DNA of 64,000 nt from Armatimonadota bacterium. GTDB taxonomy: Bacteria > Armatimonadota > UBA10988. The notes below the pieces were generated by a model. The model worked only from the letters and a program-made list of their open reading frames with translations. It made no database searches and was not told the origin of the DNA. Location: assembly GCA_016235455.1 (NCBI GenBank), contig JACRKZ010000068.1, forward strand, positions 14,682 through 78,681, in the 5' to 3' direction. Positions 1 to 64,000 of the stretch are shown piece after piece (the stretch's first letter is position 1; every line of letters starts with the position of its first letter). Made by a program: the position numbers and the translations under genes.

Positions 1-2481
1 GCGCTGGCCGTCGAGCCAGGCGAGGATCGACCGGGCCTGCTCGTCGCTGGCCAGGCCAAAAGCGATGGCCTCGTTGTTGACGAAGGTGTAGCCGTAGTCG
101 TGGCCCACACCGGCGCTGTCGATACAGGCCACGAAGCGGCCGGTGGTCGGGTTCCAGAAGCGTTGCCGCGAGCGCGTGCGCACCTGGTCGGCCAGCGCCG
201 CCAGGCTGGCCGCGCCGCGCTCGGCTGGAGGCAGGCGCCACTCCGGATGCGCCGCGATCTGGCCCTCGAGCTGCGCCATGCGTCGCAGCGCGTCGTACAG
301 GTAGATTGTGGCCAGCGTGTCGTGGCCGCCGAAGGGCAGCAGGTCCCAGTAGTTGTTGCCGATGCCCAGCCCGGCATGCACGGTCTTGCCGTCGTAGCCC
401 GCGCGGCCATCGTGGCCGACCCACGGCACGAATACGCAGCCTTCCTGTTCGACTCTGAACTCGCGCAGGGCGAAGTCCAGCGCGTGGCGCATGCGCGGCA
501 GGTTCTCGGTCAGGAAGGCGCGGTCGCCGGTCCAGCGGTAGTACTCGGTGCAGCCCTGCACGTAGTTGGGGTTGTTCACCGGATGCCGCGTATCGCAGGC
601 GGTGACCAGCCCCAGAATGCGCAGCGTGCCGCCGCGCGCGCCGTTGAATGCCAGGCGCAGGCGCGTCAGGCGCTGGGCTGGGTCGGCGTGACGATAGAGC
701 GGCACGTGGGTGAACGACCGGCCCGGCATGTCGGTGGCCAGCGGCAGCGGCAGGCTGCGCTCGGCGCCGAACTCGGGCTGGGTGGGGCTGGTCCAGGCCA
801 GCGTGGCGCGCGCGCCCGCGGGGCACTTGGGCTCCCATTCGAGGCGCACGAACGGCGCCACCAGCCGGTCGACATCGAAGGCCGGCGTGGTCAGGCTGGC
901 CGTGTCGGCGTCGATCTTGAGCGTCAGGCCGGTCGTCTTGTCGAGCCCGGTCTGCGCCAGCCCGTCCAAGGCCCAGCCGTCGAGCGCCTTGGTGGCGCCG
1001 ACGCGGTAGACGAGGTGCTCCGTGGCGAACTGCCACGCGATGCCACCGGCCTGGAAGGTGGTCGGGAACGGCCAGCCCTCACCGTGGCCGAAGCCGTGGT
1101 GCTGGATGGTGCTGACATAACCTTCGGCGTCGATGGGCCGTTTGAGCAGTTCCGCGCGCCAGGTGGCGGCGTGGTCGTTGGCCGGCTGGTCGCCCACGGC
1201 CGGCCACAGCGAAGCCATCGACAACCAGCCGTCCCACAGGGTGGCCTTGGGGCCGCTGCCCGCATAGTGCAGCCAGTGCAGCGAGCGCAACAGCTCGGTG
1301 TAGCGCTCCTGGCCGGGGATCTCGAACCGCGGGAAGTCGTCGGGCACCAGCCAGGTGAGGAAACCCTGGGTGCCCCACGGCGGGCAGCCCACACGACCCA
1401 GCTCCATGGCCGCGGGCCAGGCCCGGTCGTCGAACCCCGACTCACGCCAGCCGGTGGCCTCAGCCGAAGCCACGCGCCAGCGGGCGTCGGTCAACGCCGA
1501 CACCAGCACCCGGTCGCCCTCGCCCAGCAGCACCAGCGCGCCGGCCAGGCCGGCGGGGTTGGGCATCTCGCCCGCGTTCAGCGCCTCCACGGCGAGCACG
1601 TTGCGGCCCGGCCGCAGCGACTCGCGCACGTCCATCTCATACCAGTCGCCGAAGCTCGACGCGACGCCGCGATAGACGCCGTTGACCCACACCGTGGCCT
1701 GGTTGTCGGCCGAGCCGACGAAGAAGGCGCGCTTGACCTGGGCCGGGTCGGCCACGTCGAACGCGCGGCGGAAGTAGCGCGTGCCCACCGGCGCGGCGTC
1801 GCGCGGGTTGGTCTTCTCGGTCGACCAGATCCACTGCGTGCGGCGGAAATCGATCTCGCGCACCGGTTGGCCCGCGGCGCGGGCCCGGGCCCGGTTGATC
1901 TGGACCGCCTGGCCCGCGGGCGCGTCGACCGGCTCGATGCTGACCGCGTCGATCAGCACCGAGATGCCGTCGCCGGGGTCGACCTGGCTGAGCTCCAGCG
2001 TGTACCCGCCGTCGCCCGGCACGAACAGCACTTCAAAGGCTTTCCAGGGCGTGGCATAGGTGCCGGCGGCATCCACGGCCGGCACTTCCACCGGCGCGAC
2101 CAGGGCTGTGCCGTTGAGCCGCACTTGGAGGCGGCCGAAGTGGCCGCAGGAGTCCTTGTCGGTGGCGCGGCCGTTGGCCGCGAGCCGCAGCCGGTAGACC
2201 TTGTCGCGCTCGAACGGGCCGACGTCCTGGCGCAGCACCGCGCGGTTCTGCAGCGCCAGCACGAACTGCCCGTCGGGCTGCGCGCCGTTGTCGAAGAAGG
2301 CCAGCGCGCGCGGATTGCGCGCGGCTTCGCCCAGCACTTCCCAGCCGGGGAGTGTGTTGCCGCCACTGACATAGCCAACGCCCTTGATCGGCGTGCTGCC
2401 AGCTTCAAAGCCGCCGTTGGCCACCAGATCAGGCGCGCCGAGGGTCAGGCAGAACAGTCCGAACGCCGCGATGGGGAACAT
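1..2481 (-). CDS. Secreted glycoside hydrolase-like protein (CBM-like and rhamnosidase-N-like domains plus (alpha/alpha)6 catalytic domain); 3' end runs off the window
   Basis: Not in the ORF track (no stop in window). My translation: MFPIAAFGLFCLTLGAPDLVANGGFE...QWIWS...RYFRRAF...SADNQATVWVNG...YYRWTGDRAFL...GNNYWDLLPFGG. GGAG ribosome site upstream, strongly G/C-ending codons. Confidence 0.75.
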   Translation of the reverse strand, partial: MFPIAAFGLFCLTLGAPDLVANGGFEAGSTPIKGVGYVSGGNTLPGWEVLGEAARNPRALAFFDNGAQPDGQFVLALQNRAVLRQDVGPFERDKVYRLRLAANGRATDKDSCGHFGRLQVRLNGTALVAPVEVPAVDAAGTYATPWKAFEVLFVPGDGGYTLELSQVDPGDGISVLIDAVSIEPVDAPAGQAVQINRARARAAGQPVREIDFRRTQWIWSTEKTNPRDAAPVGTRYFRRAFDVADPAQVKRAFFVGSADNQATVWVNGVYRGVASSFGDWYEMDVRESLRPGRNVLAVEALNAGEMPNPAGLAGALVLLGEGDRVLVSALTDARWRVASAEATGWRESGFDDRAWPAAMELGRVGCPPWGTQGFLTWLVPDDFPRFEIPGQERYTELLRSLHWLHYAGSGPKATLWDGWLSMASLWPAVGDQPANDHAATWRAELLKRPIDAEGYVSTIQHHGFGHGEGWPFPTTFQAGGIAWQFATEHLVYRVGATKALDGWALDGLAQTGLDKTTGLTLKIDADTASLTTPAFDVDRLVAPFVRLEWEPKCPAGARATLAWTSPTQPEFGAERSLPLPLATDMPGRSFTHVPLYRHADPAQRLTRLRLAFNGARGGTLRILGLVTACDTRHPVNNPNYVQGCTEYYRWTGDRAFLTENLPRMRHALDFALREFRVEQEGCVFVPWVGHDGRAGYDGKTVHAGLGIGNNYWDLLPFGGHDTLATIYLYDALRRMAQLEGQIAAHPEWRLPPAERGAASLAALADQVRTRSRQRFWNPTTGRFVACIDSAGVGHDYGYTFVNNEAIAFGLASDEQARSILAWLDGQR

Positions 2482-52000: not shown

Positions 52001-52942
52001 TCAACCCGCCGCTGGCATGGCATCGGGCGAGCTGGCATCTTTCAAGATGGTGCTGGTCCGGCCGTCTTGGCCGAGCAGGCGAATCTCGCTCGCCGACTCC
52101 CCGCCATCGCCATACAGTTCGACCGAGTAGTAGACCCGTTGGCCGTCGGCGCTGACGCTGAGATCGCTGACGCCGCCCTTGCCCATCTCCCAGGTGTCGA
52201 CGCCCCGGATGGTCTTCTTGGCCGGGTCGAACAGGTACAGCCCGGTGGTCAGCGTGCCCAGCGCCAGGCGGCCATCGGCCAACCAACCGACGCAACTCAC
52301 CGCGCCGTCGGCCTTGTGCTCGCTCATCCACTGCCAGTCCAGCCACAGCGGCGAGAGCATCTTCTGGCTACGCAGGTCGTAGAGCTCTACCGTGGCCGAG
52401 ACATCGGTGGGGAAGGTGGGCACGACGATCTGCTTGCCGTCGGGCGAGAACCGCAGGCGCGCGCGCGGGCCACCGACATCGCCCATTTCATGGGAGGCGA
52501 TTTTGCGCGACGGACCCCACTCGCTCTCCAGCGCGCCGAGGGTCAGGTACAGATCGAACTGCTCCTCGCCCCGCCGGCCGATCTTGGTGAAGGCCATCAT
52601 CCGCTCGGCCGGGCTGGCGCCGATGCCCAGCGCCGCGCCAGCGGACTTGAGCCAGGTCAGATCGGCCGGCTTGACCGGCAGTTGGCTTGTCTGCTCGACG
52701 ATGCCCACATGCGAGCGCAACGTCTCGCCGCCCTTGAGCCGCATGGTGACGAACCGCTCGGCGTCAATCCAGGTGGGCTGCACATAGACCCAGCCCGGAT
52801 CCTCGGCGATGGCTATCCTGGGCTGGGTCTTGTCGGCGGGCAACAGCCATACGCGCCCACCCCGACAGAACAGCAGCGTATCCGGCGCGGCCCCAGCGGC
52901 CCACGCGGTCAGCAACAGTGCCAACAGAGCAATGCAGCGCAT
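52001..52942 (-). CDS. Secreted TolB-like beta-propeller protein (paralog 2)
   Basis: Signal peptide; DPGWVYVQPTW, FSPDG, DLSVSADG shared with the neighbour. Confidence 0.75.
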   Translation of the reverse strand: MRCIALLALLLTAWAAGAAPDTLLFCRGGRVWLLPADKTQPRIAIAEDPGWVYVQPTWIDAERFVTMRLKGGETLRSHVGIVEQTSQLPVKPADLTWLKSAGAALGIGASPAERMMAFTKIGRRGEEQFDLYLTLGALESEWGPSRKIASHEMGDVGGPRARLRFSPDGKQIVVPTFPTDVSATVELYDLRSQKMLSPLWLDWQWMSEHKADGAVSCVGWLADGRLALGTLTTGLYLFDPAKKTIRGVDTWEMGKGGVSDLSVSADGQRVYYSVELYGDGGESASEIRLLGQDGRTSTILKDASSPDAMPAAG

Positions 52943-52966
52943 GGTCGGTCTCCTTCTAGATCATCG

Positions 52967-53908
52967 TCACTCGCCGGCCGGCGCGGCATCGGGCCAGTCA
53001 GCGTTCTCCAGTACGACCTCGGCCTCGCCGGTGCCGTCCCACATGCGGATCTCGGTGGTCGGCGCCTGGTTCTCCACGCTGACCTCCAGACCGTAATAGA
53101 CGCGCTTGCCATCGGCGCTGACGCTCAGGTCGGTGACGCTGGCCTGGCCCTTGTCGCGCGCGTCCAGGCATTCTGCCTTCTTGGTCTTAGGGTCGTACGC
53201 CCAGAGGCCGGTGCCCGTCGTGCCCAGCAGGATGCGCCCGTCGCCCAGCCACGCGGCGCAGCTCACGCGCGGGCTCTCGAGGTGCTCCACCAGCCACTCA
53301 TGCTTCAGCCATTCCGGCTCGAGCAGCTTGCCCGAGGCCACGTCGACCAGCGACATGGGCACGCCAAACGCGTCGGTGAACGTGGGCACGATGGCCTGGC
53401 TGCCGTCGGGCGAGAAGTGCACGCGCGCCAGCAGCGAGGACTGGTCCTCGGCGAAGGTGGAGTAGTTCTTGGCCTTGGGCCAATCGCCCTCGAACGGCGC
53501 GACGGTCAGGAAGGCCTTGTTGACGCCCTCCTTGCGCTCACCGAGCTTGGTCAGCGCCAGCAGCTTGTGCTTGGGGCTGACGCCGATGTTGAACGCGCCA
53601 CCGGCGGGCTCCAGCCACTGGATGTCGGCGACCTTGTACTCGCCTTCGGGCAGCACACCGGCCATGCCGACATGCGAGCGGTTCAGTTCGCCGTCTTTGA
53701 GCCGCATGACAGCAAACACGTCGGCATCGAACCACGTGGGCTGCGTGTAGGCCCAGCCGGGATCGTCGGCGATGGCCTGGCGTGGCTCGTCGGCATCCTT
53801 GGGCAGCACCCAGATGTGGCCATCGCGCACGAAGAGCAGCGCATCGGGCGCAGCCTGGAGCGCGGCGACGGCGGCGAGCAGGAGAAGCAGGGGGGTGGTA
53901 CGGCGCAA
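52967..53908 (-). CDS. Secreted TolB-like beta-propeller protein (paralog 1)
   Basis: TTG start after GGGAGA; signal peptide; DPGWAYTQPTW, FSPDG, DLSVSADG. Confidence 0.75.
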   Translation of the reverse strand: MRRTTPLLLLLAAVAALQAAPDALLFVRDGHIWVLPKDADEPRQAIADDPGWAYTQPTWFDADVFAVMRLKDGELNRSHVGMAGVLPEGEYKVADIQWLEPAGGAFNIGVSPKHKLLALTKLGERKEGVNKAFLTVAPFEGDWPKAKNYSTFAEDQSSLLARVHFSPDGSQAIVPTFTDAFGVPMSLVDVASGKLLEPEWLKHEWLVEHLESPRVSCAAWLGDGRILLGTTGTGLWAYDPKTKKAECLDARDKGQASVTDLSVSADGKRVYYGLEVSVENQAPTTEIRMWDGTGEAEVVLENADWPDAAPAGE

Positions 53909-54008
53909 GTTGGATCTCCCTTGGCTGTGTATTGTAGCTGATGGCCAACCGACCTTGTCGGCGTTCCTCAGCGCGGCTGGCACGGCCACGCGCGTAGTAT
54001 CAGTCTGT

Positions 54009-54038
54009 TTGACTCTGATTCTGACGATGTGATACATT
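54009..54038 (+). promoter_or_regulatory. Candidate promoter for the ATPase module
   Basis: TTGACT, 18 nt, TACATT preceded by TG, in an AT-richer intergenic region. Confidence 0.5.
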
Positions 54039-54082
54039 CAATAGAATGCGAGTCACTTCCTAGGTTCAACGCGGGGTATGTC

Positions 54083-55450
54083 ATGTGCGTCGACAACGAG
54101 GCTGGCGGCCCAACCAGTGGGGAGACAACGAAGGTCGGCCCGCTCCTACTCCAAGTGCCGCAAGACATAGAGCAGGACGCGCGGTGGGCTGACGCGGTTG
54201 TTGAACGCGGTCCTGTTCGCGCCCCGGGGGGCGCAGAGACGCCGCTGTCGTATGAGGCCCTGGCCGAGATCCACGACGGGACGGCGAAGGCGCCTCAGAA
54301 GGCCCGAGTGGTGGTCTGCCGAGCCGAGGAGGGTGTGCTGTGGAGCGTGACGTGCCGGCCGCAGGGCGGCGGGTCAAGCAAGTACGCCTACAAGGCCACC
54401 GACATGGCGCGCCTCGTCTGGGGCCGCCTTGAGTCGCACGTGCAGGCCCGGGACCCCAGAGGCGGACTGCTGATCGTCGCTGGCGGGACGGGTTCGGGCA
54501 AGACCACATACGCGCGGGAGCTGTGCCACCGGCTGGTTCAGCAGGATCCCACGCGCCTGCACATTGTCTCGATCGAGGATCCTGTCGAGACGGCGAACTG
54601 GTTCAGCGGGACGACTGGTGCGACGGCACGATTGGTGGAACTGGCCGCCACCCGGAACAGGGCGCGCGATGAAGCAGCTACCGAAGCCATGGCGGCCGCG
54701 CGGTGCACGGCCCATCGTCTTGGCCCAGAGGTCGAGCGAGCGTACCTTGCGGCGGAGCGAACGAAGGGAAGTGCGCTGCACGAGGCCAGCAGCGCCGGTG
54801 GCCCGGACTCCACTTGGTGGAAGACGATGCGGCATCGTCGCATCGACACCGAATCGGTGCGCGCGGCGCTGATGGGCACGGCGCTGCGTCAGACGCCGGG
54901 TCTGGTGATTGTGGGCGAGGTGCGCGACGACGAAGACTGGCAGGCCGTCGTCGAGTTCAGTCGCACGGGCCATCTCTGCGTGGTGACCACTCATGCCGGG
55001 TCGCTGACCATGGCCGTGTCCAGGCTGATCCGGGCACTTGGCCTGCGCACTCCCGCTGACCGTGCGTACCTGGCTGACTCGCTGCTGGGCGTCCTTCACC
55101 TGGCGGTCCACGCCCTGGCGAAGCCCGCGGGCACGGTGGCGCAGTTGCCGGCGCTCTGGGTGCCCCTGCCACGCTCCGCTGGGCTCTTCGCCGGTTCAGG
55201 GCTGCGGTCGCTCGTGGCCGAGCGATCCGCGCTGGCGCCGCGGCGCGCTGGTCGGGATGCGAGTGGCGTCTATGGACGGCACTACTTCATGGAATCCGCT
55301 TTCGGTGCCAGCGGCTGCAAACTGCGTGACAAAGCGGTTCGGCTGTTTCCCAACCAACCCGATGGCGCACCTGTAGGTACGGCGGCTAAGCGTGCTGCCC
55401 GAGGCGAACTGCTCGAACGCGCCTACCGAATGGACGAGAGGGGGTTGTAG
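54083..55450 (+). CDS. Divergent PilT/GspE/VirB11-family ATPase
   Basis: GGTGSGKT Walker A, SIEDPVE Asp box, ALRQTPGLVIVGEVRD Walker B, TGHLCVVTTH His box. Start uncertain (54029 or 54083). Confidence 0.85.
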   Translation: MCVDNEAGGPTSGETTKVGPLLLQVPQDIEQDARWADAVVERGPVRAPGGAETPLSYEALAEIHDGTAKAPQKARVVVCRAEEGVLWSVTCRPQGGGSSKYAYKATDMARLVWGRLESHVQARDPRGGLLIVAGGTGSGKTTYARELCHRLVQQDPTRLHIVSIEDPVETANWFSGTTGATARLVELAATRNRARDEAATEAMAAARCTAHRLGPEVERAYLAAERTKGSALHEASSAGGPDSTWWKTMRHRRIDTESVRAALMGTALRQTPGLVIVGEVRDDEDWQAVVEFSRTGHLCVVTTHAGSLTMAVSRLIRALGLRTPADRAYLADSLLGVLHLAVHALAKPAGTVAQLPALWVPLPRSAGLFAGSGLRSLVAERSALAPRRAGRDASGVYGRHYFMESAFGASGCKLRDKAVRLFPNQPDGAPVGTAAKRAARGELLERAYRMDERGL

Positions 55451-55453
55451 GCG

Positions 55454-58400
55454 ATGGCTCACAACGACTACGCACTCAAGCTCGGCATCCCGTCACTCGA
55501 CGGCCTTCTGCCGTGGCCGCCAGGGAGCAGGGGCAAGAGCACAACCTGCGGGATCCATGTCTGTGGCGGTGAGGCCACGACGGTGGCGTTTGTGGGTGGC
55601 GACGGCACGGGCAAATCGGTACTGGCCATGCACATGGCGGCAACCTACCACAGCGAACTGAGGAAGGACGGCGGTCGGTCCACTGTCTACTACGTTTCGT
55701 CTGACCTCAGCCATGCGCGCGCGAAGGCCATGTGGACCAGCTTCGGCCTGGACCAGCGCATCCGCCGGGTCTGCTTCTGCGAGAGCAAGTCGGGCACGGT
55801 GCGGCTGGGGACGCGCGCCAAACTGGTCCTCGCGGGTACCGACGCCGTGTCGGGCGCGAAGGCCGCGCGGGGAGCTCGCGCAGACCGCCCAGTCCCCTTC
55901 ATCGACCTGGCCAGCCGCTCTACCGGCGACGATTGGGGGTATCTGTGCCGCTTGGTCGGCCTACTCCCAACGCCATCGGCTGGCGAACGCCCGCATATGC
56001 TAGTCATCGACTCCGTGGATGGGCTGTTCCGTTGCGGTGGTCGGCTTGACGCCTATGGCGAGGAGCGCAGTCGCGAAGACTGCCTGACTGAGTTGATGCG
56101 ACTGGCCAGCAGAAAGTGCCATTTGGTACTGCTGGCCGAAGAGCCCGACGAGGGCAAGCGCACGCGCGAGCAGTACGACTGCAATGTGGTGTTCCGCCTG
56201 AGGGTCGAGGAGGCCGCCGACACACCGCGCGTCAGCATCCAAGTCGAGAAGACGCGCGGCCAGCAGGCGCGTCAGGGACGGCACGAAATGGCCATCCTGC
56301 CCGGATCCAAGGCCCACGGCCTCCTGCTGTGCAACAGCTACGTCCATGTCTACCCGTCGATCAGCAGCGAGAGCCTGGACGCAGAATGGTCGCCAGACGC
56401 TCCGGCCGACGCCGTTGACGAGGAACCAAGCGCGGTGACGCTGAGCGGCATCAAATACCTGGATGCCATGGTGGGTCGCATCACCAGGCAGCAGGCTGCC
56501 GGGCACATCACGGCGCTGATCGGCGAGGAAGGCACGCACAAGCTGTACCTAGCTAATGCCTTCCTGACCGCGCATCTCCACGGAGGCCAGCCTGGCAAAG
56601 CCGTGCTCCTGACGACCAGGACCTTGAGCGAGGAGGTCTGGCGGCACGAACTCCGCACGGCGATGGGTGAGGCGCGCGGCTCGGAGCACCCGGCAGTTGA
56701 CCTGAGCCGGTCGACGCACCTGGTTGCGCTGGGCAACCGGCCATTCAGCGCCGAGCGGCTGCTCCACCGCATCCGCCGCGCGATATGCCATGTGGCGGAG
56801 TTCGACGCCGATGGGAGCCCGGACAGCAGCCACTGGCAGCGCATGGCCACGCGCGACGCGGACTACACCAAGGGGAAGCGCTCGCCGGAGATCCGGCTGG
56901 TCATCGATGACCTCTCGCGCATCCTGCACGACTACCCCGACGTGGGGCAGCAGGCCGAGTTCATCAAGGAACTGGAGCGCCTGATCAAGCAGACGGGCGT
57001 GCAGGCCATGCTGGTCAACACGCAGCGCGGACAACTCCGATCAGCGCAGCGGGACGAGCGCGCCGACCTTGTCCGCGCCATGGCGGACCAGGTGCTCTAC
57101 ACCTGGAAGGTGAGTCTGCTTGGCAGCACGGCCGTGGCGATCAGTGCTTCGCCCTTGGCCCCGCGCGGCCACCACGCGAGCATCGGCGAACTGCGATGGC
57201 CGCGCCAAGCCCCTCCGGGATCCAGCCGACTGCTCGTCGACCCGCACTTGGACATGTACGATGGGCTGGACAAGGCGGACCCGGAGGCCGTGCCGGTTCA
57301 GTTGCGTGTCCATTTGTACAGGGAGACCAACGGGCCAACGGTTTCGCCAGGTGATGACGCGAGCCTCGCGGCAGCGGCCGCACCGCCGCACCAGGCAGGC
57401 ACCCGCGTTGCGGCTCGGGGCAGTGGCGGTGAGCCGGCCAGCGTCGACCACTACTTCCGCGAGATGGCCAGATGGCTCTCGCAGAGCATGCAAGAGCACG
57501 ACCGCGACCCCCACACCAGGCCGACTGTCGTGTTCTGCGCGCACGATGACTACGGTGACCTGCGCAATGTGTGCTATGCCTCCGGGGGCATGTTGTACGG
57601 CCACTCGCAGGTTGTCCAGATCGACGAGTGGTGGGCCGACACCAACGGCAACCTACTGCCGATGGACACCTACTTGGACGAGACCGTCGAGACGGATGGG
57701 GCGCACGACGACCTGGTCGATCCCTACCGCGTCTTCAGTCAGAGGATGGGCGACCAGACGACCAAGGGCATAGCCGGTGACGCCATCCTCAGGCGCCTCG
57801 ATTGCGTCATGCATGGGGAGCTCGACTACGGCTACGACCTGCTCGTCCAGGCCAAGTGCGCCAACGGCCAGACAGGCGCAGGCCAGCCTGCTCCAACCGC
57901 GAACGGCGGAACCGCCGCGGCCAGGCATCTGACGCCCATCGACCGTTTCCCGCACACCTTCGACTTTGGCTTTTTGATGCTGCATCGCGCCAGTTGGTCC
58001 TATGCACTGGCCTCGCCCAAGGCGCCGGCGGGCATGCAGCAGCGCTATGACTTGCTCACCAAGCCCTTCACGGCTCCAACGCCGCCCACCAAGAAAGGGC
58101 GGCGGGACTGGCACGAGTCGGTGGTCAGGCCGTTTCTCGACGCCAACGTGGACAGCCCGACATGGGTGACGTGGGCGGAGTTCATTGCTGATTGCGAGTT
58201 CGTGGCGAGTCTGGCCGGCGACATGCTCCCGTTCGGCGTGGCCATGGACTCCACCGAGACCATGTCATGCCTGGTGCTGGAGATCTGGGCCTCGCTGCTC
58301 GACGCGCCGTGCAGCGATGGGCCGCTGGACTCCGCTTGGACCAGCGGGGCACCGGTTCGGTCGACGATGAGCGCAGCCGGCGATGGGTGCCGCTTCGGTG

Positions 58401-59143
58401 GGCCACGGTGGATGACCGGGCCGTTCTCACTTCATGATCTGCTCGGCACCGAGCCAGGCGCCGACAGCCTTCGCCGTGCGATCGAGACCATCGCCAAGGG
58501 GCTACGTGGCCAGCAGCCCCTCGGCGATCAGCAGGGCTTCATCGCTCAGTCGGCGCCGTCGAACGTGGTGGCGGCTCGGCACTGGTACAGCACGGCAGCA
58601 CCGCAACTGCCGCACTCGACCGAGCGTAAGCAGTGGGTGGCGGCCGTACTGCCGGGCATGTACAGCGTCCGGGGCGACTGGTTCCTGGGCATCGGCCATG
58701 GCAGCCGCTCCACCGCCCTGGCGCGGCGTGCGGTGGATTTGCTGTCCAGCCACCGCGCGAACGCTGAGCGACTGCACTGCTGCATCGGCCTGCCTGTGCG
58801 CCGCACCTATCAGAAGGAGGTGCGGATGGCCGGGTTCACGCGCCTGGCGGCGGCGGACGGCAAGCCGGTCGGTCTGGGCACCATCATGGACACCGTCTGC
58901 GGTATGTATGGCCCTGCGCCTGGGCGGAAGGAGACCATCAACCATCCGGAACATCGGCGATGGCTGTGGCGCTCATCGATCCGCAACTACCACCACAACA
59001 ACCGCGTCTGGATCGGCTGGCTGCGTTGGGTGATCGAGCAAGCCCTAAGCGACCTGCGGACGCACGGTGAGGTCAACCCCGAGTGGTGGCCCGGCGAGAT
59101 CGGCGTCATCAAGGCGGCGCTCAGGCAGAGCGAACCAATGTAG
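55454..59143 (+). CDS. Tandem KaiC/RecA-like ATPase domains fused to a C-terminal solute-binding-protein-like domain
   Basis: Domain 1: LGIPSLDGLL, GGDGTGKS, LVIDS, EKTRG. Domain 2: SGIKYLD, GEEGTHKL, LVIDD. C-terminus: IDEWW, LLPMD, FPHTFDFGFL, TWAEF, RHWYS, GDWFLGI, GLPVR. Confidence 0.75.
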   Translation: MAHNDYALKLGIPSLDGLLPWPPGSRGKSTTCGIHVCGGEATTVAFVGGDGTGKSVLAMHMAATYHSELRKDGGRSTVYYVSSDLSHARAKAMWTSFGLDQRIRRVCFCESKSGTVRLGTRAKLVLAGTDAVSGAKAARGARADRPVPFIDLASRSTGDDWGYLCRLVGLLPTPSAGERPHMLVIDSVDGLFRCGGRLDAYGEERSREDCLTELMRLASRKCHLVLLAEEPDEGKRTREQYDCNVVFRLRVEEAADTPRVSIQVEKTRGQQARQGRHEMAILPGSKAHGLLLCNSYVHVYPSISSESLDAEWSPDAPADAVDEEPSAVTLSGIKYLDAMVGRITRQQAAGHITALIGEEGTHKLYLANAFLTAHLHGGQPGKAVLLTTRTLSEEVWRHELRTAMGEARGSEHPAVDLSRSTHLVALGNRPFSAERLLHRIRRAICHVAEFDADGSPDSSHWQRMATRDADYTKGKRSPEIRLVIDDLSRILHDYPDVGQQAEFIKELERLIKQTGVQAMLVNTQRGQLRSAQRDERADLVRAMADQVLYTWKVSLLGSTAVAISASPLAPRGHHASIGELRWPRQAPPGSSRLLVDPHLDMYDGLDKADPEAVPVQLRVHLYRETNGPTVSPGDDASLAAAAAPPHQAGTRVAARGSGGEPASVDHYFREMARWLSQSMQEHDRDPHTRPTVVFCAHDDYGDLRNVCYASGGMLYGHSQVVQIDEWWADTNGNLLPMDTYLDETVETDGAHDDLVDPYRVFSQRMGDQTTKGIAGDAILRRLDCVMHGELDYGYDLLVQAKCANGQTGAGQPAPTANGGTAAARHLTPIDRFPHTFDFGFLMLHRASWSYALASPKAPAGMQQRYDLLTKPFTAPTPPTKKGRRDWHESVVRPFLDANVDSPTWVTWAEFIADCEFVASLAGDMLPFGVAMDSTETMSCLVLEIWASLLDAPCSDGPLDSAWTSGAPVRSTMSAAGDGCRFGGPRWMTGPFSLHDLLGTEPGADSLRRAIETIAKGLRGQQPLGDQQGFIAQSAPSNVVAARHWYSTAAPQLPHSTERKQWVAAVLPGMYSVRGDWFLGIGHGSRSTALARRAVDLLSSHRANAERLHCCIGLPVRRTYQKEVRMAGFTRLAAADGKPVGLGTIMDTVCGMYGPAPGRKETINHPEHRRWLWRSSIRNYHHNNRVWIGWLRWVIEQALSDLRTHGEVNPEWWPGEIGVIKAALRQSEPM

Positions 59144-59176
59144 ACGAATACGCAAGCCGGCCAAACGTCCACCCCC

Positions 59177-59206
59177 TTGACGACCGCCTCCGGCCGATGC
59201 TAGCCT
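59177..59206 (+). promoter_or_regulatory. Promoter, probably leaderless transcript of the GHMP kinase
   Basis: TTGACG, 18 nt, TAGCCT preceded by TGC; ATG 7 nt later with no SD. Confidence 0.5.
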
Positions 59207-59213
59207 CCACGCC

Positions 59214-60626
59214 ATGAGCACCGACAACCTGCCCGCCGATCTCGCCGCGTTCGCCGCCCGCCTGCGCGGCCACGCGTTGTGCCGTTTCGCCGCCGGCCAG
59301 CCGCTCCTGCTGACCCGCGCGCCGGGCCGGCTCGATGCGCTCGGCGGCGTCATCGACTACACCGGCGGCACCGTCTGCGAGATGCCCTGCGCCGTCGCCA
59401 CTCGGGTGGCGCTGCAGCCGCGCGCCGACCGTGTCGTGCGCATCGTCAGCCTGGGCGTCGAAGAGCATGGGCTCACGCCGGTGGTTGAGGTGCCGCTCGA
59501 TGCCCTGCTCAGCAACGACTACGCTGCTGTCGGTTCGATGCTGCGCGCCGACCCTTCGGCGTCCTGGGCGGCCTATGTGGCCGGCGCCTGGACCGTGCTG
59601 TTCGGCGAAGGGCTGGTGCCGTCGTTCCCCGGTGGCGCCGAGGTGGTCATCGACAGCGATGTGCCCGCCGGCGCCGGCGTCAGCAGCTCGGCCGCCATCG
59701 AGATGGCCACGCTGCTGGCTGTCGCGCGGTACGCCGGCGCGGACGTTGAGCCCAGCCGGCTGGCGCATCTCGGCCAGCGCGTGGAGAACCGCGTGGTCGG
59801 CGCGCCGTGCGGGCTGATGGACCAGCTCACCGTGACGCTCGGCCTGGCCGACTCGCTGTTGGTCATTCGCTGCCAGCCGGATCAGATCGTGGCCAACCGG
59901 CGGCTGCCCCAGGGCGTCACGCTCGGCGCCATCCATACCGGCGTGAAGCACTCGGTGGGCGGTCGGCACTATACCGACGCCCGCGTGTCCGCCTTCATGG
60001 CCCACCGGATCATCCTCGACCATCTGCGCGCCCTGGGCACCGTCGGTGCCGCGGACGATCCGTTCGGCGGCTACCTGGCGGAGGTCCGGCCGTCGGAGTT
60101 CGCCACCGCCTACCTGCCGCTGCTGCCCGAGCGCATGACCGGCGCCGCCTTCATCGCCGCGCATGGTCAGACCGTCGACACGGCGACGCGCGTCGATCCC
60201 GACACCACCTATCGGGTCGCCTCGGCCGCCCGCCATCATGTGCGCGAGAATGCCAACACATACGCATTCCTGGAGGCCTTGGACGCCTTCGAACGGACCC
60301 AGCAGACCGCCTTCCTGGAGCTGGCCGGTGAGCTGATGATCCAGGGCCACGACGGCTATCGCGACGACCTGGACCTGGGCGCGCCCGAGGCAGACCTGCT
60401 GGTGGCGCTGGCCATGTCGGAAGGCCCGCTCAACGGCGTCTACGGCGGCCGCATCACCGGCGGCGGCAGCGGCGGCAGCGTCATCTTCCTGGGCGACGAT
60501 CGGCTGCCCGCCTTGCTGCCCCGGCTGGCCGAGCGCTACGCGACCGAGTCGGGCTGCCAGCCGACCATCCTGCTGGGCTCGAGCGACGGCGCCGCGGCGG
60601 TCGGGGTCAACTCGCTGGTCTGGTAG
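59214..60626 (+). CDS. GHMP sugar kinase (galactokinase/L-arabinokinase-like)
   Basis: APGRLDALGGVIDYTG, PAGAGVSSSAA, CGLMDQ, GGRITGGGSGG. Confidence 0.88.
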   Translation: MSTDNLPADLAAFAARLRGHALCRFAAGQPLLLTRAPGRLDALGGVIDYTGGTVCEMPCAVATRVALQPRADRVVRIVSLGVEEHGLTPVVEVPLDALLSNDYAAVGSMLRADPSASWAAYVAGAWTVLFGEGLVPSFPGGAEVVIDSDVPAGAGVSSSAAIEMATLLAVARYAGADVEPSRLAHLGQRVENRVVGAPCGLMDQLTVTLGLADSLLVIRCQPDQIVANRRLPQGVTLGAIHTGVKHSVGGRHYTDARVSAFMAHRIILDHLRALGTVGAADDPFGGYLAEVRPSEFATAYLPLLPERMTGAAFIAAHGQTVDTATRVDPDTTYRVASAARHHVRENANTYAFLEALDAFERTQQTAFLELAGELMIQGHDGYRDDLDLGAPEADLLVALAMSEGPLNGVYGGRITGGGSGGSVIFLGDDRLPALLPRLAERYATESGCQPTILLGSSDGAAAVGVNSLVW

Positions 60627-62012: not shown

Positions 62013-63389
62013 CTACTCGTGACCACCACGGGCTTTGAGGAGGTCGGCCAGGCCTGCATGGCCCTTCGCGTAGTGCAAGGGCGTCCGACCGTCAATGCCC
62101 TTGGAGTTGACGTCGGCGCCCTTGTCGAGCAGGAACCTGACCATCTTGGACTGCCCCTTGATCACGGCGTAGTGCAACGGCGTAAAGCCCTCAGCGCCAT
62201 CAGCCACGTTGATGTCGGCGCCTTTCGCCAACAGCAGTTGGGCGACCTCGGCGTGGCCCAACATCGCCGCGTAGTGCAAAGGTGAGGTCGAGGCAGGCAA
62301 TCCTGCGGCGCTCTGGCCATTCACATCGGCACCATGGTCTAGAAGGACCTTGACCATCTGCGCGTTGCCTCTACAAGCAGCCCAGTGCAGGGGCAAGCCC
62401 TTGTCGTTTCCGACATCGACGTCGGCGCCCTTCTCCACCAACAGTTGGACCAACTCGATTTGCCCATCGCTGCAAGCGCATATCAAGGGCGTCAGGCCGC
62501 CGTTGTTCTTGGCGTCGATGCCGCTCCATCCACGCTTTGTGCCCTCGATTCGGGAGCCCTCGCGTAGCGGCACGGTCAGCACCTCCCGCTGTGCAAGCGG
62601 CTCCCGAGCTTGGCGGTTGAGCGCACGCAGTTCATCAACCGTGCTGTTGCAGGAGCGGGCCACTGACTCCATCGTGTCCCCCTGCTGAACATGGTAGATG
62701 ACATAGGTGGTAGTCCGGTGTTCCGGGGGCATGGCACCGCCTGCTGTGGCCGTGTTGACGGCAAGGGCAGCGCCTTTCTCGACGATCAAGCTGGCTATCT
62801 GAGTGTTTCCTTTGTAAGCGGCCCAGTGCAGAGGGGTAGAGCCGTTACCGTCTTCGGCATTGATGTCGGCGCCCTTCCCTAGCAAAAGTTGGGCGACCTC
62901 GGTGTGCCCATAGATGGCGGCACAGTGCAGGGCGGTCCAGCCCCTATCGTCCTTGCGATTCACGTCGCCGCCATGGCCAAGAAGCACCTCGACGACCTTG
63001 TCGTGTCCCTTAACCACCGCGTAGTGCAAGGGGGCGACGCCTGCGGAGGCCTTGGCGTTGACGTCGGCGCCATGGTCCAGAAGCATCTCGACGACCTTGT
63101 CGTAACCATTGGAGGCGGCCCAGTGTAGAGGGGACTTCCCTTCTGCTGCCCTCAAGTTGACGTCGGCGCCCTTCTCCAACAACAGCCGGACGACCTGATC
63201 ATGGCCGTTGCCAGCAGCTCTGTGAAGAGGGGTGATACCGTCCAAGGCCCTGGTGTTTACGTCAGCGCCCTTGGCGAGAAGCATACCTATCGCTGCCACG
63301 TCGCCCTTGGCGGCCGCTTCTCCCATCGGGTCGGCCGGGCTCGCCGCTGCCATCACGAAACAGATCAGGAACACCCTACAGCCGACCAT
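62013..63389 (-). CDS. Secreted ankyrin-repeat protein with internal LysM domain
   Basis: About 11 TPLH-type repeats; YHVQQGDTMESVA...ELRALN...LTVP insert; hydrophobic N-terminus. Confidence 0.85.
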   Translation of the reverse strand: MVGCRVFLICFVMAAASPADPMGEAAAKGDVAAIGMLLAKGADVNTRALDGITPLHRAAGNGHDQVVRLLLEKGADVNLRAAEGKSPLHWAASNGYDKVVEMLLDHGADVNAKASAGVAPLHYAVVKGHDKVVEVLLGHGGDVNRKDDRGWTALHCAAIYGHTEVAQLLLGKGADINAEDGNGSTPLHWAAYKGNTQIASLIVEKGAALAVNTATAGGAMPPEHRTTTYVIYHVQQGDTMESVARSCNSTVDELRALNRQAREPLAQREVLTVPLREGSRIEGTKRGWSGIDAKNNGGLTPLICACSDGQIELVQLLVEKGADVDVGNDKGLPLHWAACRGNAQMVKVLLDHGADVNGQSAAGLPASTSPLHYAAMLGHAEVAQLLLAKGADINVADGAEGFTPLHYAVIKGQSKMVRFLLDKGADVNSKGIDGRTPLHYAKGHAGLADLLKARGGHE

Positions 63390-63711
63390 GAATGACTCTC
63401 CCCTGCCGTGGTGGACCGCGACAACGCGACTGCCGGCCGCTGCTTCCCGAGCGCCACCCCTATGCCCTGGCTCAGCTCGCTTCGCATTGGGCGCGACGCC
63501 AACTCGTCTGCCTTCGACGCGGCAGGTGGGTGTCCTTCGCCGGACCGCCCAGTCGCAGGCCCGCAGGTCACCTGCACGGGCCCTGAATGCACCTAACTCC
63601 GCCCAGTCACGCAACCGCTGTGGCAGTACCGGGATCACCCGCACCGGCTCAGCCTGCTCGGCTGGCGCGTGCCGTCGGGGATCCCGATGCCCGCTCGCCA
63701 CCAGTGCCCCA

Positions 63712-64000
63712 TCACTCCACCAACCGCACCGCCCCCACCACCACCGTCGTCGCATAGTCCGCGACGCCCTTCCGGTCGACCACCTCCAGCCGCAGCCGCA
63801 GCGTCTCGCCCGGCTTGGCGACGGGGCTCAGGTCGACCGTGGTCCACTCCTTGCCGTGACGGTTCAGCGCCAGATCCTCTTCCCACAGCAGCCGGTCGCC
63901 GCAGCGTAGCGCATACCAGCGGTAGCCCGGCCAGTCGGGCGAGACCAGCGTGTCGTTGAGGTAGAGCTGGAGCGACGGCGCCTTGACGCCCGCGGGGATG
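63712..64000 (-). CDS. C-terminal fragment of a protein with a beta-sandwich tail (5' part outside the window)
   Basis: My translation ...LQLYLNDTLVSPDWPGYRWY...LLWEEDL...VDLSPV...LRLRLEVVDRKG...VRLVE-stop, with G/C-ending codons. Confidence 0.65.
   Translation of the reverse strand, partial: IPAGVKAPSLQLYLNDTLVSPDWPGYRWYALRCGDRLLWEEDLALNRHGKEWTTVDLSPVAKPGETLRLRLEVVDRKGVADYATTVVVGAVRLVE

Follow-up and report, generated by a model that had tools for sequence, protein, structure and literature searches.

A conserved, translationally coupled gene pair joins a predicted PilT-type ATPase to a KaiC-like protein with a solute-binding fold in Armatimonadota and other bacterial phyla

Why would a bacterium keep a gene for a pilus-motor type of ATPase directly beside a gene for a KaiC-like protein, with no pilus gene near either, and what might the two products do together? 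PilT-family ATPases are understood almost solely as the motors of membrane-anchored filament or secretion machines, and KaiC-family proteins as clocks or archaeal signalling hubs. The question is raised by our window (the whole stretch of DNA analysed here, 64,000 nucleotides of contig JACRKZ010000068.1 from an Armatimonadota bacterium), in which two plus-strand open reading frames (ORFs), gene A and then gene B, occupy the whole of positions 54009-59143. The two genes are given below, with residue numbering in A following its longest ORF and lengths in amino acids (aa).

54029 (GTG)-55450, plus strand: gene A, longest ORF, 473 aa, P0001
54083 (ATG, residue M19)-55450, plus strand: gene A, probable coding sequence, 455 aa
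55454-59143, plus strand: gene B, 1229 aa, P0002, with two KaiC-like domains and a solute-binding-protein (SBP) fold domain

We find that A and B are a real, conserved, self-contained and translationally coupled module, and we lean slightly towards reading it as a soluble, self-contained and probably ligand-gated assembly of two ATPase rings that would follow a logic like that of ArlH and ArlI.

Evaluating one genome per species, we found 57 loci with a relative of B, distributed over Acidobacteriota, Planctomycetota, Armatimonadota, Myxococcota and Pseudomonadota (Burkholderiales), with single Verrucomicrobiia and Longimicrobiaceae records. One locus, L052, comes from a cultivated carrier, Rhizobacter sp. 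OV335, the only one among them. At 47 of these loci tblastn places an A homologue immediately 5' of B in the same orientation (48 of 58 by ORF clustering with the window included), the paired loci belonging to Acidobacteriota, Planctomycetota, Armatimonadota, Pseudomonadota and Verrucomicrobiia, and in 38 of the 47 the distance from the A stop to the nearest B start is only -4 to +10 nt. Among the ten loci lacking A, eight have a B that is truncated by a contig end or fragmentary, and the other two, both Myxococcales (L014:5824-13388 and L020:1089-7401), have B at full length. Clustering all ORFs of the loci revealed no third conserved gene common to more than a handful of them, and no pilus or secretion gene is conserved beside the pair across the 57 loci. 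Considered as extra module genes and rejected, ORF clusters 2-6 proved to be antisense shadows within A and B, and clusters 7-12 scattered common families.

In a sample of 401 genomes from the window's own phylum, a profile of the A family gave five family-specific matches (150-457 bits), all of them adjoining B, and ordinary PilT paralogues reached at most 121 bits through core-only matches. The A and B trees have 18 of 36 splits in common, where shuffled labels give 0.3 on average and never more than 2, a concordance to which species history contributes. At E <= 1e-30 a profile of B's C-terminal domain recovered 398 cluster representatives (clusters at 50% identity), a figure that rises to 997 at E <= 0.001; the best 150 are nearly all 1100-1870 aa long with the domain C-terminal, the shorter ones being fragment-like. 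The distribution inside the phylum is patchy, with 8 of the 401 genomes possessing the domain, three of those copies being stop-broken or fragmented and one more just a contig-end fragment, and with no full copy among 40 closer relatives; the module seems to be readily lost here. The broken copies lie in three other genomes of the phylum (G328:C1:42902-44466, G318:C7:897-2621 and G198:C194:9145-11017). The closest relatives of the window's B come from two Armatimonadota loci, with an identity of about 32%. An earlier note on this DNA, made from the sequence alone, had said that a conserved, patchily distributed pair without pilus genes would speak for a distinct system, and had named as ways to fail that the homologues lie apart or that the PilT-like gene normally sits in pilus or secretion loci; what we see is that 47 of 57 loci have A just before B and that every family-specific A match in the 401 genomes is beside B. 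Full-text literature searches over the main texts of openly accessible papers returned no description of the pair.

The junction in the window is equally close. The A stop TAG (55448-55450), a 3-nt spacer (GCG) and the B start ATG (55454) follow one another, confirming the 3-nt gap described earlier, and a Shine-Dalgarno-like element for B can be read from the sequence within the last codons of A.

55437-55445, plus strand: GAGAGGGGG, Shine-Dalgarno-like element for B

Independently assembled contigs from two metagenome runs of one study span this junction (55298-56916 and 54522-59300) with no indels, and with the same order at 47 other loci this removes the assembly chimera that had also been feared. 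Both genes are intact in the window and keep every family-invariant residue. Neither protein has an evident transmembrane (TM) segment or signal peptide (top 19-residue Kyte-Doolittle mean 1.46 for A and 1.24 for B), as had been claimed.

By its sequence and predicted structure, A appears to be a complete motor ATPase of the PilT type, in which each of the four catalytic motifs is intact. It belongs to the superfamily by Pfam T2SSE (PF00437; 76.7 bits, gathering cut-off 24.9) and falls far under every cut-off of the curated models for PilT/PilU, GspE, PilB, DotB, VirB11 and FlaI. Across 29 aligned family sequences from related loci, the Walker A residues G152, T154 and K158 are invariant, and the same holds, or almost holds, for the Asp box (E183-D184-P-x-E187), Walker B (G296-E297-x-R299) and His box (H315/T320/H322). 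Among PDB sequences the family profile finds PilT at E 1.6e-29 (PilT/PilU at about 1e-29), through the ATPase core only. The predicted structure (pLDDT 73.5, pTM 0.68, with low confidence at residues 1-38 and 45-66) reaches Z 20.7 to DotB 6geb, PilU 9n32 and PilT 2eyu; on full-length PilT 3jvv_C, model residues 40-471 align with chain residues 2-341 (290 aligned), so both PilT domains are present in A. The parts of A that matter below are these.

54146-54388, plus strand: A residues ~40-120, beta-rich N-terminal domain aligning with the PilT N-terminal domain (structure model)
54482-54505, plus strand: A residues 152-159, Walker A GGTGSGKT (family alignment)
54617-54766, plus strand: A residues ~197-246, helical-hairpin insertion after the Asp box (alignment columns 620-700 and model)
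55136-55447, plus strand: A residues 370-473, family-specific C-terminal extension, predicted B-docking element (alignment and complex model)

The N-terminal domain has strands at 74-111 in the model, with R93 invariant and R110 near-invariant. Three traits are specific to the family, namely a poorly predicted N-terminal leader, the variable insertion that follows the Asp box, and the ~100-residue C-terminal extension. The insertion is modelled as helices 197-230 and 233-246 (pLDDT 52-78), and is far longer in the window copy than in the rest of the family. The extension carries the motifs PAxWRRT, G..L.ADGL.S and GRxxFA with near-invariant P374, W377, G391, R417 and D469, and it ends in ..WDLEG in most members and in ..YRMDERGL in the window. 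Ordinary PilT proteins match the A-family profile only at positions ~135-320.

Turning to B, its N-terminal half places it among KaiC-like proteins, with a Pfam KaiC (PF06745) match of 42 bits (cut-off 26.6) over two stretches, which correspond to two successive domains.

55454-56383, plus strand: B residues 1-310, KaiC-like domain 1 (Pfam, family alignment, profile against KaiC structures)
56438-57238, plus strand: B residues 329-595, second and more divergent RecA/KaiC-like domain (Pfam, KaiC_arch_3, alignment)

In domain 1 the Walker A motif (G48-S55, 55595-55618), Walker B D186, K266 and R268 are invariant, and the family profile matches KaiC 8zn5 at E 1.9e-13 with the best stretch EEFVaDvVirLR..RRTiEveKaRG; the segment containing K266 and R268 aligns with KaiC CI. 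In domain 2 we find Walker A at G357-K363 (56522-56545), Walker B at V483-I484-D485, a KaiC_arch_3 match at residues 332-389 (E 1.9e-4), and a second, weak profile stretch placing positions 524-576 on KaiC residues 129-181. A phmmer search of the N-terminal half against PDB gave no match, and the database names of B relatives are limited to 'hypothetical protein', 'ATPase domain-containing protein' and 'KaiC/GvpD/RAD55 family RecA-like ATPase'.

The remainder of B, by its predicted structure, is a complete two-lobed solute-binding-protein fold.

57239-59140, plus strand: B residues 596-1229 (634 aa), type-II SBP fold of the MalE/TMBP/CbpB sugar-binding kind (predicted structure)

Modelled from a 44-sequence alignment (pLDDT 77.1, pTM 0.84), the domain gave 338 Foldseek matches in PDB at E <= 0.001, the best being CbpB 7x0j (E 4e-8) and the top ones cellodextrin-, beta-glycoside-, maltose- and trehalose-binding proteins. 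A second aligner placed 370 of 407 residues on the trehalose/maltose-binding protein 1eu8_A (Z 21.4, rmsd 3.4 A), and among the matches it listed, 50 of 50 are ABC-importer solute-binding proteins, with sugars as the ligand type in nearly every case. The lone sequence signal comes from hhalign, as a local match with an SBP alignment of 33 rows (P 0.0048, controls 0.24-0.65), which covers a conserved strand-helix motif of the SBP C-terminal lobe; hhalign against two single SBPs returned nothing, as did the domain profile against the window's own genome at E <= 10. Protein-atlas features hint weakly at SBP_bac_8 (0.93 for the window domain, with 128 of 256 features shared, and 0.81-0.82 for the homologue P0065). 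The domain family carries invariant residues, mostly Trp, Arg, Asp and Ser (W727, E943, W945, S947, R1073, D1075, S1084, S1086, D1095, R1106, R1116, W1170 and R1173). Insertions add about 260 aa to the domain, and it lacks a signal peptide. Because it is fused to the C-terminus of an ATPase and has no export signal, it must act in the cytoplasm.

Given a conserved pair of ATPases, we evaluated whether their products might touch. Since the window's A and B are too long to model jointly, we used the shortest related pair, that of Armatimonadota locus L013, modelling its whole 399-aa A with B residues 1-600 from our own alignments. The complex scored 0.74, where the best of three controls scored 0.00, a mark reached by 58 of 80 solved complexes and by 2 of 110 mismatched pairs, counts that are rough because our own alignments were used. 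At least 78% of contacts agree between runs, with partner pLDDT at or above 80. The predicted interface comprises A residues 340-352, 362-364 and 388-398 of L013 (window 389-401, 416-418 and 462-470) and B residues 128-141, 164-175 and 201-219 (window ~132-139, 162-173 and 199-217), the B positions lying just past a conserved TAGDDWG element and just past Walker B. On the A side it uses the C-terminal extension, which is absent from ordinary PilT proteins. This homologous-pair model supports, and does not show, a docking of the A extension on the first KaiC domain of B, and the earlier suggestion of a two-ATPase machine is borne out to that extent. We know of no solved complex between a KaiC-like and a PilT-type protein.

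How, then, does the pair relate to known systems? ArlH-ArlI (FlaH-FlaI) of the archaellum motor likewise joins a KaiC-like RecA-fold protein to a hexameric ATPase of the GspE/PilT superfamily, with a KaiC-like/ATPase contact that is predicted here. The differences are that our module is bacterial, that B has two KaiC-like domains and a sugar-binding fold whereas ArlH has one domain, and that no ArlJ platform, ArlX/CDE or archaellin/filament genes are found in the window flanks or conserved at the loci; A itself scores 34.9 bits against the 550 cut-off of the ArlI (FlaI) model NF058587, and its Z of 14.4 to a FlaI structure lies under those to PilT, PilU and DotB. PilT and PilU resemble A in two-domain architecture, in the four motifs and in structure (Z 20-20.7), yet A reaches only 80.6 bits against the TIGR01420 cut-off of 319.1, has its own N-terminal leader and ~100-residue extension, and sits beside B and never beside pilus genes. 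The tetracysteine zinc module, which we take to be a mark of PilB and GspE, was not seen in A on reading the family alignment. DotB, a PilT-like ring that works by docking on another cytoplasmic ATPase assembly, ties with PilU and PilT as the best structural match of A (6geb_B, Z 20.7, 312 residues aligned), but A scores 41.7 bits against the TIGR02524 cut-off of 463.3, Dot/Icm genes are lacking, and its partner resembles KaiC and not VirB4.

Circadian KaiC is like B in having tandem RecA-like domains, in the domain 1 segment EEFV.D.VI.LR..RRT.E..K.RG and in passing the PF06745 cut-off, and is unlike it in that B scores 9 bits against 408 for NF006799, that no KaiA or KaiB gene is in the flanks, that domain 2 is highly diverged, and that a 634-aa SBP domain is appended. 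ABC sugar-binding proteins (TMBP 1eu8, MalE3 6dtq, CbpB 7x0j and beta-glycoside-binding 7c68) have both of their lobes represented in B, but at 8-17% identity, with no Pfam SBP match and with about 260 residues of insertions; the B domain moreover has no signal peptide or lipobox, is fused to an ATPase C-terminus, and has no permease or ABC ATPase gene alongside. The pair thus shares folds and motifs with PilT/PilU, FlaI, DotB, circadian KaiC and transporter SBPs and falls outside the models of each.

We return to the reading that we slightly favour. In the ArlH-ArlI case, the KaiC-like ArlH stimulates ArlI when bound to ATP and ceases to interact with it once autophosphorylated (PMC8978795). 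By analogy, A and B would be two subunits of one soluble ATPase assembly, in which B would most likely form a KaiC-type ring of two stacked RecA-like tiers with MalE-like domains projecting from it as cytoplasmic sensors of a small, probably carbohydrate-like ligand. A, having no pilus context, would dock through its C-terminal extension on KaiC domain 1 near Walker B, and the binding and activity of A would depend on ligand occupancy and on B's nucleotide (or autophosphorylation) state, such that B holds, releases or activates the motor. What we infer in this scheme is the stoichiometry of the rings, the gating by a ligand, which way control runs, and what the motor acts on downstream.

Several observations weigh against this reading, some touching the contact, some the fold and some the family. 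The L013 proteins are about 32% identical to those of the window and were modelled as one subunit each, with no rings; the interface is not more conserved than the rest (B 0.479 vs 0.516, p 0.71; A 0.495 vs 0.434, p 0.10); and the window's A departs from consensus there, with P->A at 397, L->E at 470 and a shorter tail. By reading of the consensus, B domain 2 seems to have no obvious catalytic acid past Walker A. The solute-binding fusion proposed earlier stands at the level of fold (1eu8), and sequence methods beyond single-sequence hhalign are also blind to it: Pfam matched none of 44 C-terminal domains at E <= 10, membership in PF13416 or PF01547 being absent, a PF13416 search of the window's genome found six other places and not B, and the domain profile matched no PDB sequence at E <= 10. 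Small-ligand binding by this domain, and with it the ligand gating that the earlier note proposed, is suggested by its modelled fold alone. The two Myxococcales loci keep a full-length B with no A, the window's B has a very long branch (2.34) and atypical composition, and no output or effector domain was detected in B, including its 1.6-1.9-kaa variants, which gave only KaiC/AAA matches. Among such variants, three from Bryobacteraceae/Acidobacteriaceae (L054:9968-13660, L056:6464-10333 and L059:9968-13735) have a pre-SBP part of about 1230-1290 aa in place of about 600, and in the two that were scanned, L054 and L056, the extra 600 residues contain no recognised Pfam domain.

A bolder version of the two-ring reading goes further than we are ready to follow except tentatively. 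The module might represent an unrecognised class of soluble bacterial machine, with a PilT-type ring stacked on a two-tier KaiC-type ring that bears six cytoplasmic SBP arms. What it works on might, again doubtfully, be a glycan in the cytoplasm, a glycosylated polymer or a metabolite that serves as a signal, and it would need no pilus, secretion system, clock or transporter for this. If true, the ATPase fold of pilus motors would here have been put to a new use, and ArlH-ArlI control would have its first counterpart in bacteria.

We consider it rather unlikely that the pair is an anti-phage or conflict system, in which the SBP domain would sense an infection-derived molecule and the ATPases would arrest the cell (e.g., by ATP consumption) or remodel a component of the invader. 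The idea had been raised by the earlier note, and the part of it that stands is distributional and compositional. The spread is patchy (8 of 401 genomes) with three of eight copies broken or fragmented and one more a contig-end fragment, close relatives (40) have no full copy, the two-gene operon layout of sensor plus NTPase would fit, and codon usage is, as had been noticed, less stereotyped than in the housekeeping neighbours, the GC content at third codon positions (GC3) being 0.76 in A and 0.83 in B vs 0.90-0.925 in the genes for the histone-deacetylase-family protein (HDAC), DnaE, GHMP kinase and the thioredoxin-like protein. The B tree shows some between-phylum transfers (7 label changes, minimum 4), though these are few and it mostly tracks phyla.

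Neither the neighbourhoods nor the signs of mobility that we looked for favour this view. Scanning the two nearest ORFs on each side at 47 loci (149 ORFs, 132 after those >640 aa were dropped), we found about 8 of 132 matching PADLOC at E <= 1e-10, several through generic models (ankyrin, RtcR-like AAA, P-loop); the flanks show no sign of the defence islands that the earlier note would have taken as pointing to conflict. The commonest Pfam families in these flanks are housekeeping ones (short-chain dehydrogenases, response regulators, peroxiredoxin/thioredoxin, phosphoglucomutase, nucleotidyltransferases, TPR, hydrolases and glycosyltransferases), with 2 integrases among the 132 ORFs. Searches of plasmid records (72,556), phage records (50,697) and IMG/VR found no copies; the pair has no detected effector domain, whether nuclease, protease, TIR or another; and no convincing att-like repeats flank it, the sole tRNA in the window lying 48 kb off. 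PADLOC-DB 2.0 gave no specific match, only mad8 (A residues 138-183, E 7.4e-5; B residues 462-529, E 1.4e-5). We rejected a mad8 identity for A or B, the similarity being at the level of the P-loop; mad8 is described as part of an ATPase-nuclease module (PMC13662399).

Equally improbable in our view is a control in trans of the host's type IV pilus or type II secretion, in which A would be a spare retraction-type motor held or released by B according to a metabolite; that such control would couple motility or secretion to carbohydrate status is no better than improbable either. In its favour, A retains the whole PilT architecture and every catalytic motif, and the window's genome has at least 10 further PilT/GspE-type matches on which it could act, in carrier phyla that commonly bear type IV pili. 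These further matches lie on contigs C8, C28, C36, C97, C108, C161 and C169 of that genome (G000), three of them clustered on C161, so the host has more than one pilus or secretion machine within reach of such a regulator. The predicted sensor fold is of sugar-binding type, and a KaiC-like protein, CirA, reportedly affects archaeal pilus- and archaellum-based motility, which we also counted for this view. ArlH, itself KaiC-like, likewise influences archaellum-based motility (PMC8978795). Yet at no locus is a pilus or secretion gene conserved beside the pair, and the module is missing from most pilus-bearing relatives. The part of A corresponding to the PilT C-terminal helix, which is presumably the element needed for retraction, is replaced by the extension that is predicted to bind B.

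That A and B are chance neighbours, a misassembly or decaying remnants with no joint function is very improbable, since for all the divergence of the window copy (long branch, composition, extra A insertion, interface substitutions) the order, strand and near-zero spacing recur at 47 other loci in five phyla, the ORFs are intact with their family-invariant residues, and independent contigs bridge the junction.

The setting of the pair in the window adds context to these readings. The earlier note had given the pair a promoter-like element of its own, and we do see one candidate.

54009-54038, plus strand: sigma-70-like promoter candidate TTGACT-18-TACATT (consensus match only, 9 of 12 positions)

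It is the sole sigma-70-like site in 53500-59700, where shuffled sequences lead one to expect 0.4 +/- 0.8; as a mere consensus match it is weak evidence of a promoter, and the claim is upheld only so far. Because the site overlaps the GTG at 54029, we take ATG 54083 as the likelier start of A. Two alternative 113-nt contigs in two metagenome runs cover 53996-54108, that is, the promoter candidate and the 5' end of A, and differ at 54026, 54046, 54075 and 54078, variants that represent strain-level polymorphism just 5' of the likely ATG. A scan of 53500-59700 for terminator-like sites found none.

The flanking genes are unrelated to the pair, as had been stated. Upstream lie genes for DnaE and for the histone-deacetylase-family protein and then two minus-strand tandem paralogous genes for secreted proteins, and downstream are those for GHMP kinase, a thioredoxin-like protein and an ankyrin/LysM protein; no pilin, platform protein, secretin, KaiA/KaiB, ABC permease or histidine kinase gene is in the window flanks of the pair, again in agreement with the earlier description. 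The secreted-protein paralogues P0190 (313 aa) and P0189 (356 aa as longest ORF), on the minus strand at 52001-54037 and divergent to A, have signal-peptide-like N-termini and the common motifs ..FSPDG.. and ..DLSVSADG.RVYY.., with a GC3 of 0.86 and no Pfam match. Only 70 nt (59144-59213), with no terminator-like site, separate B from the same-strand gene for GHMP (galactokinase-like) kinase, making read-through from B into a sugar kinase possible; a kinase beside the pair is not conserved at other loci. The ankyrin protein (62013-63755, minus strand, 580 aa, at least 9 ankyrin repeats and a LysM match) is encoded by a gene with a GC3 of 0.74, atypical like that of A, and may be another acquired gene. 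Away from the window, the A-less Myxococcales locus L014 has a second B-like gene (1225 aa, with KaiC domains) tail-to-tail with B and a GH5 cellulase gene upstream.

What the module offers is a complete PilT-type motor, as predicted, tied to a KaiC-type partner that carries a sugar-receptor fold in the cytoplasm, with no membrane component. The family is not rare, its carriers being soil and freshwater phyla that are difficult to study. Should the predicted docking be true, the pair would provide a tractable, soluble two-protein model for the control of secretion-type ATPases by KaiC-like proteins, which in the archaellum is still an open question, and would add a new case in which a solute-binding fold has been taken up for sensing inside the cell. 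For Acidobacteriota, Planctomycetota and Armatimonadota, the module would then be a candidate for a regulator or for a conflict system.

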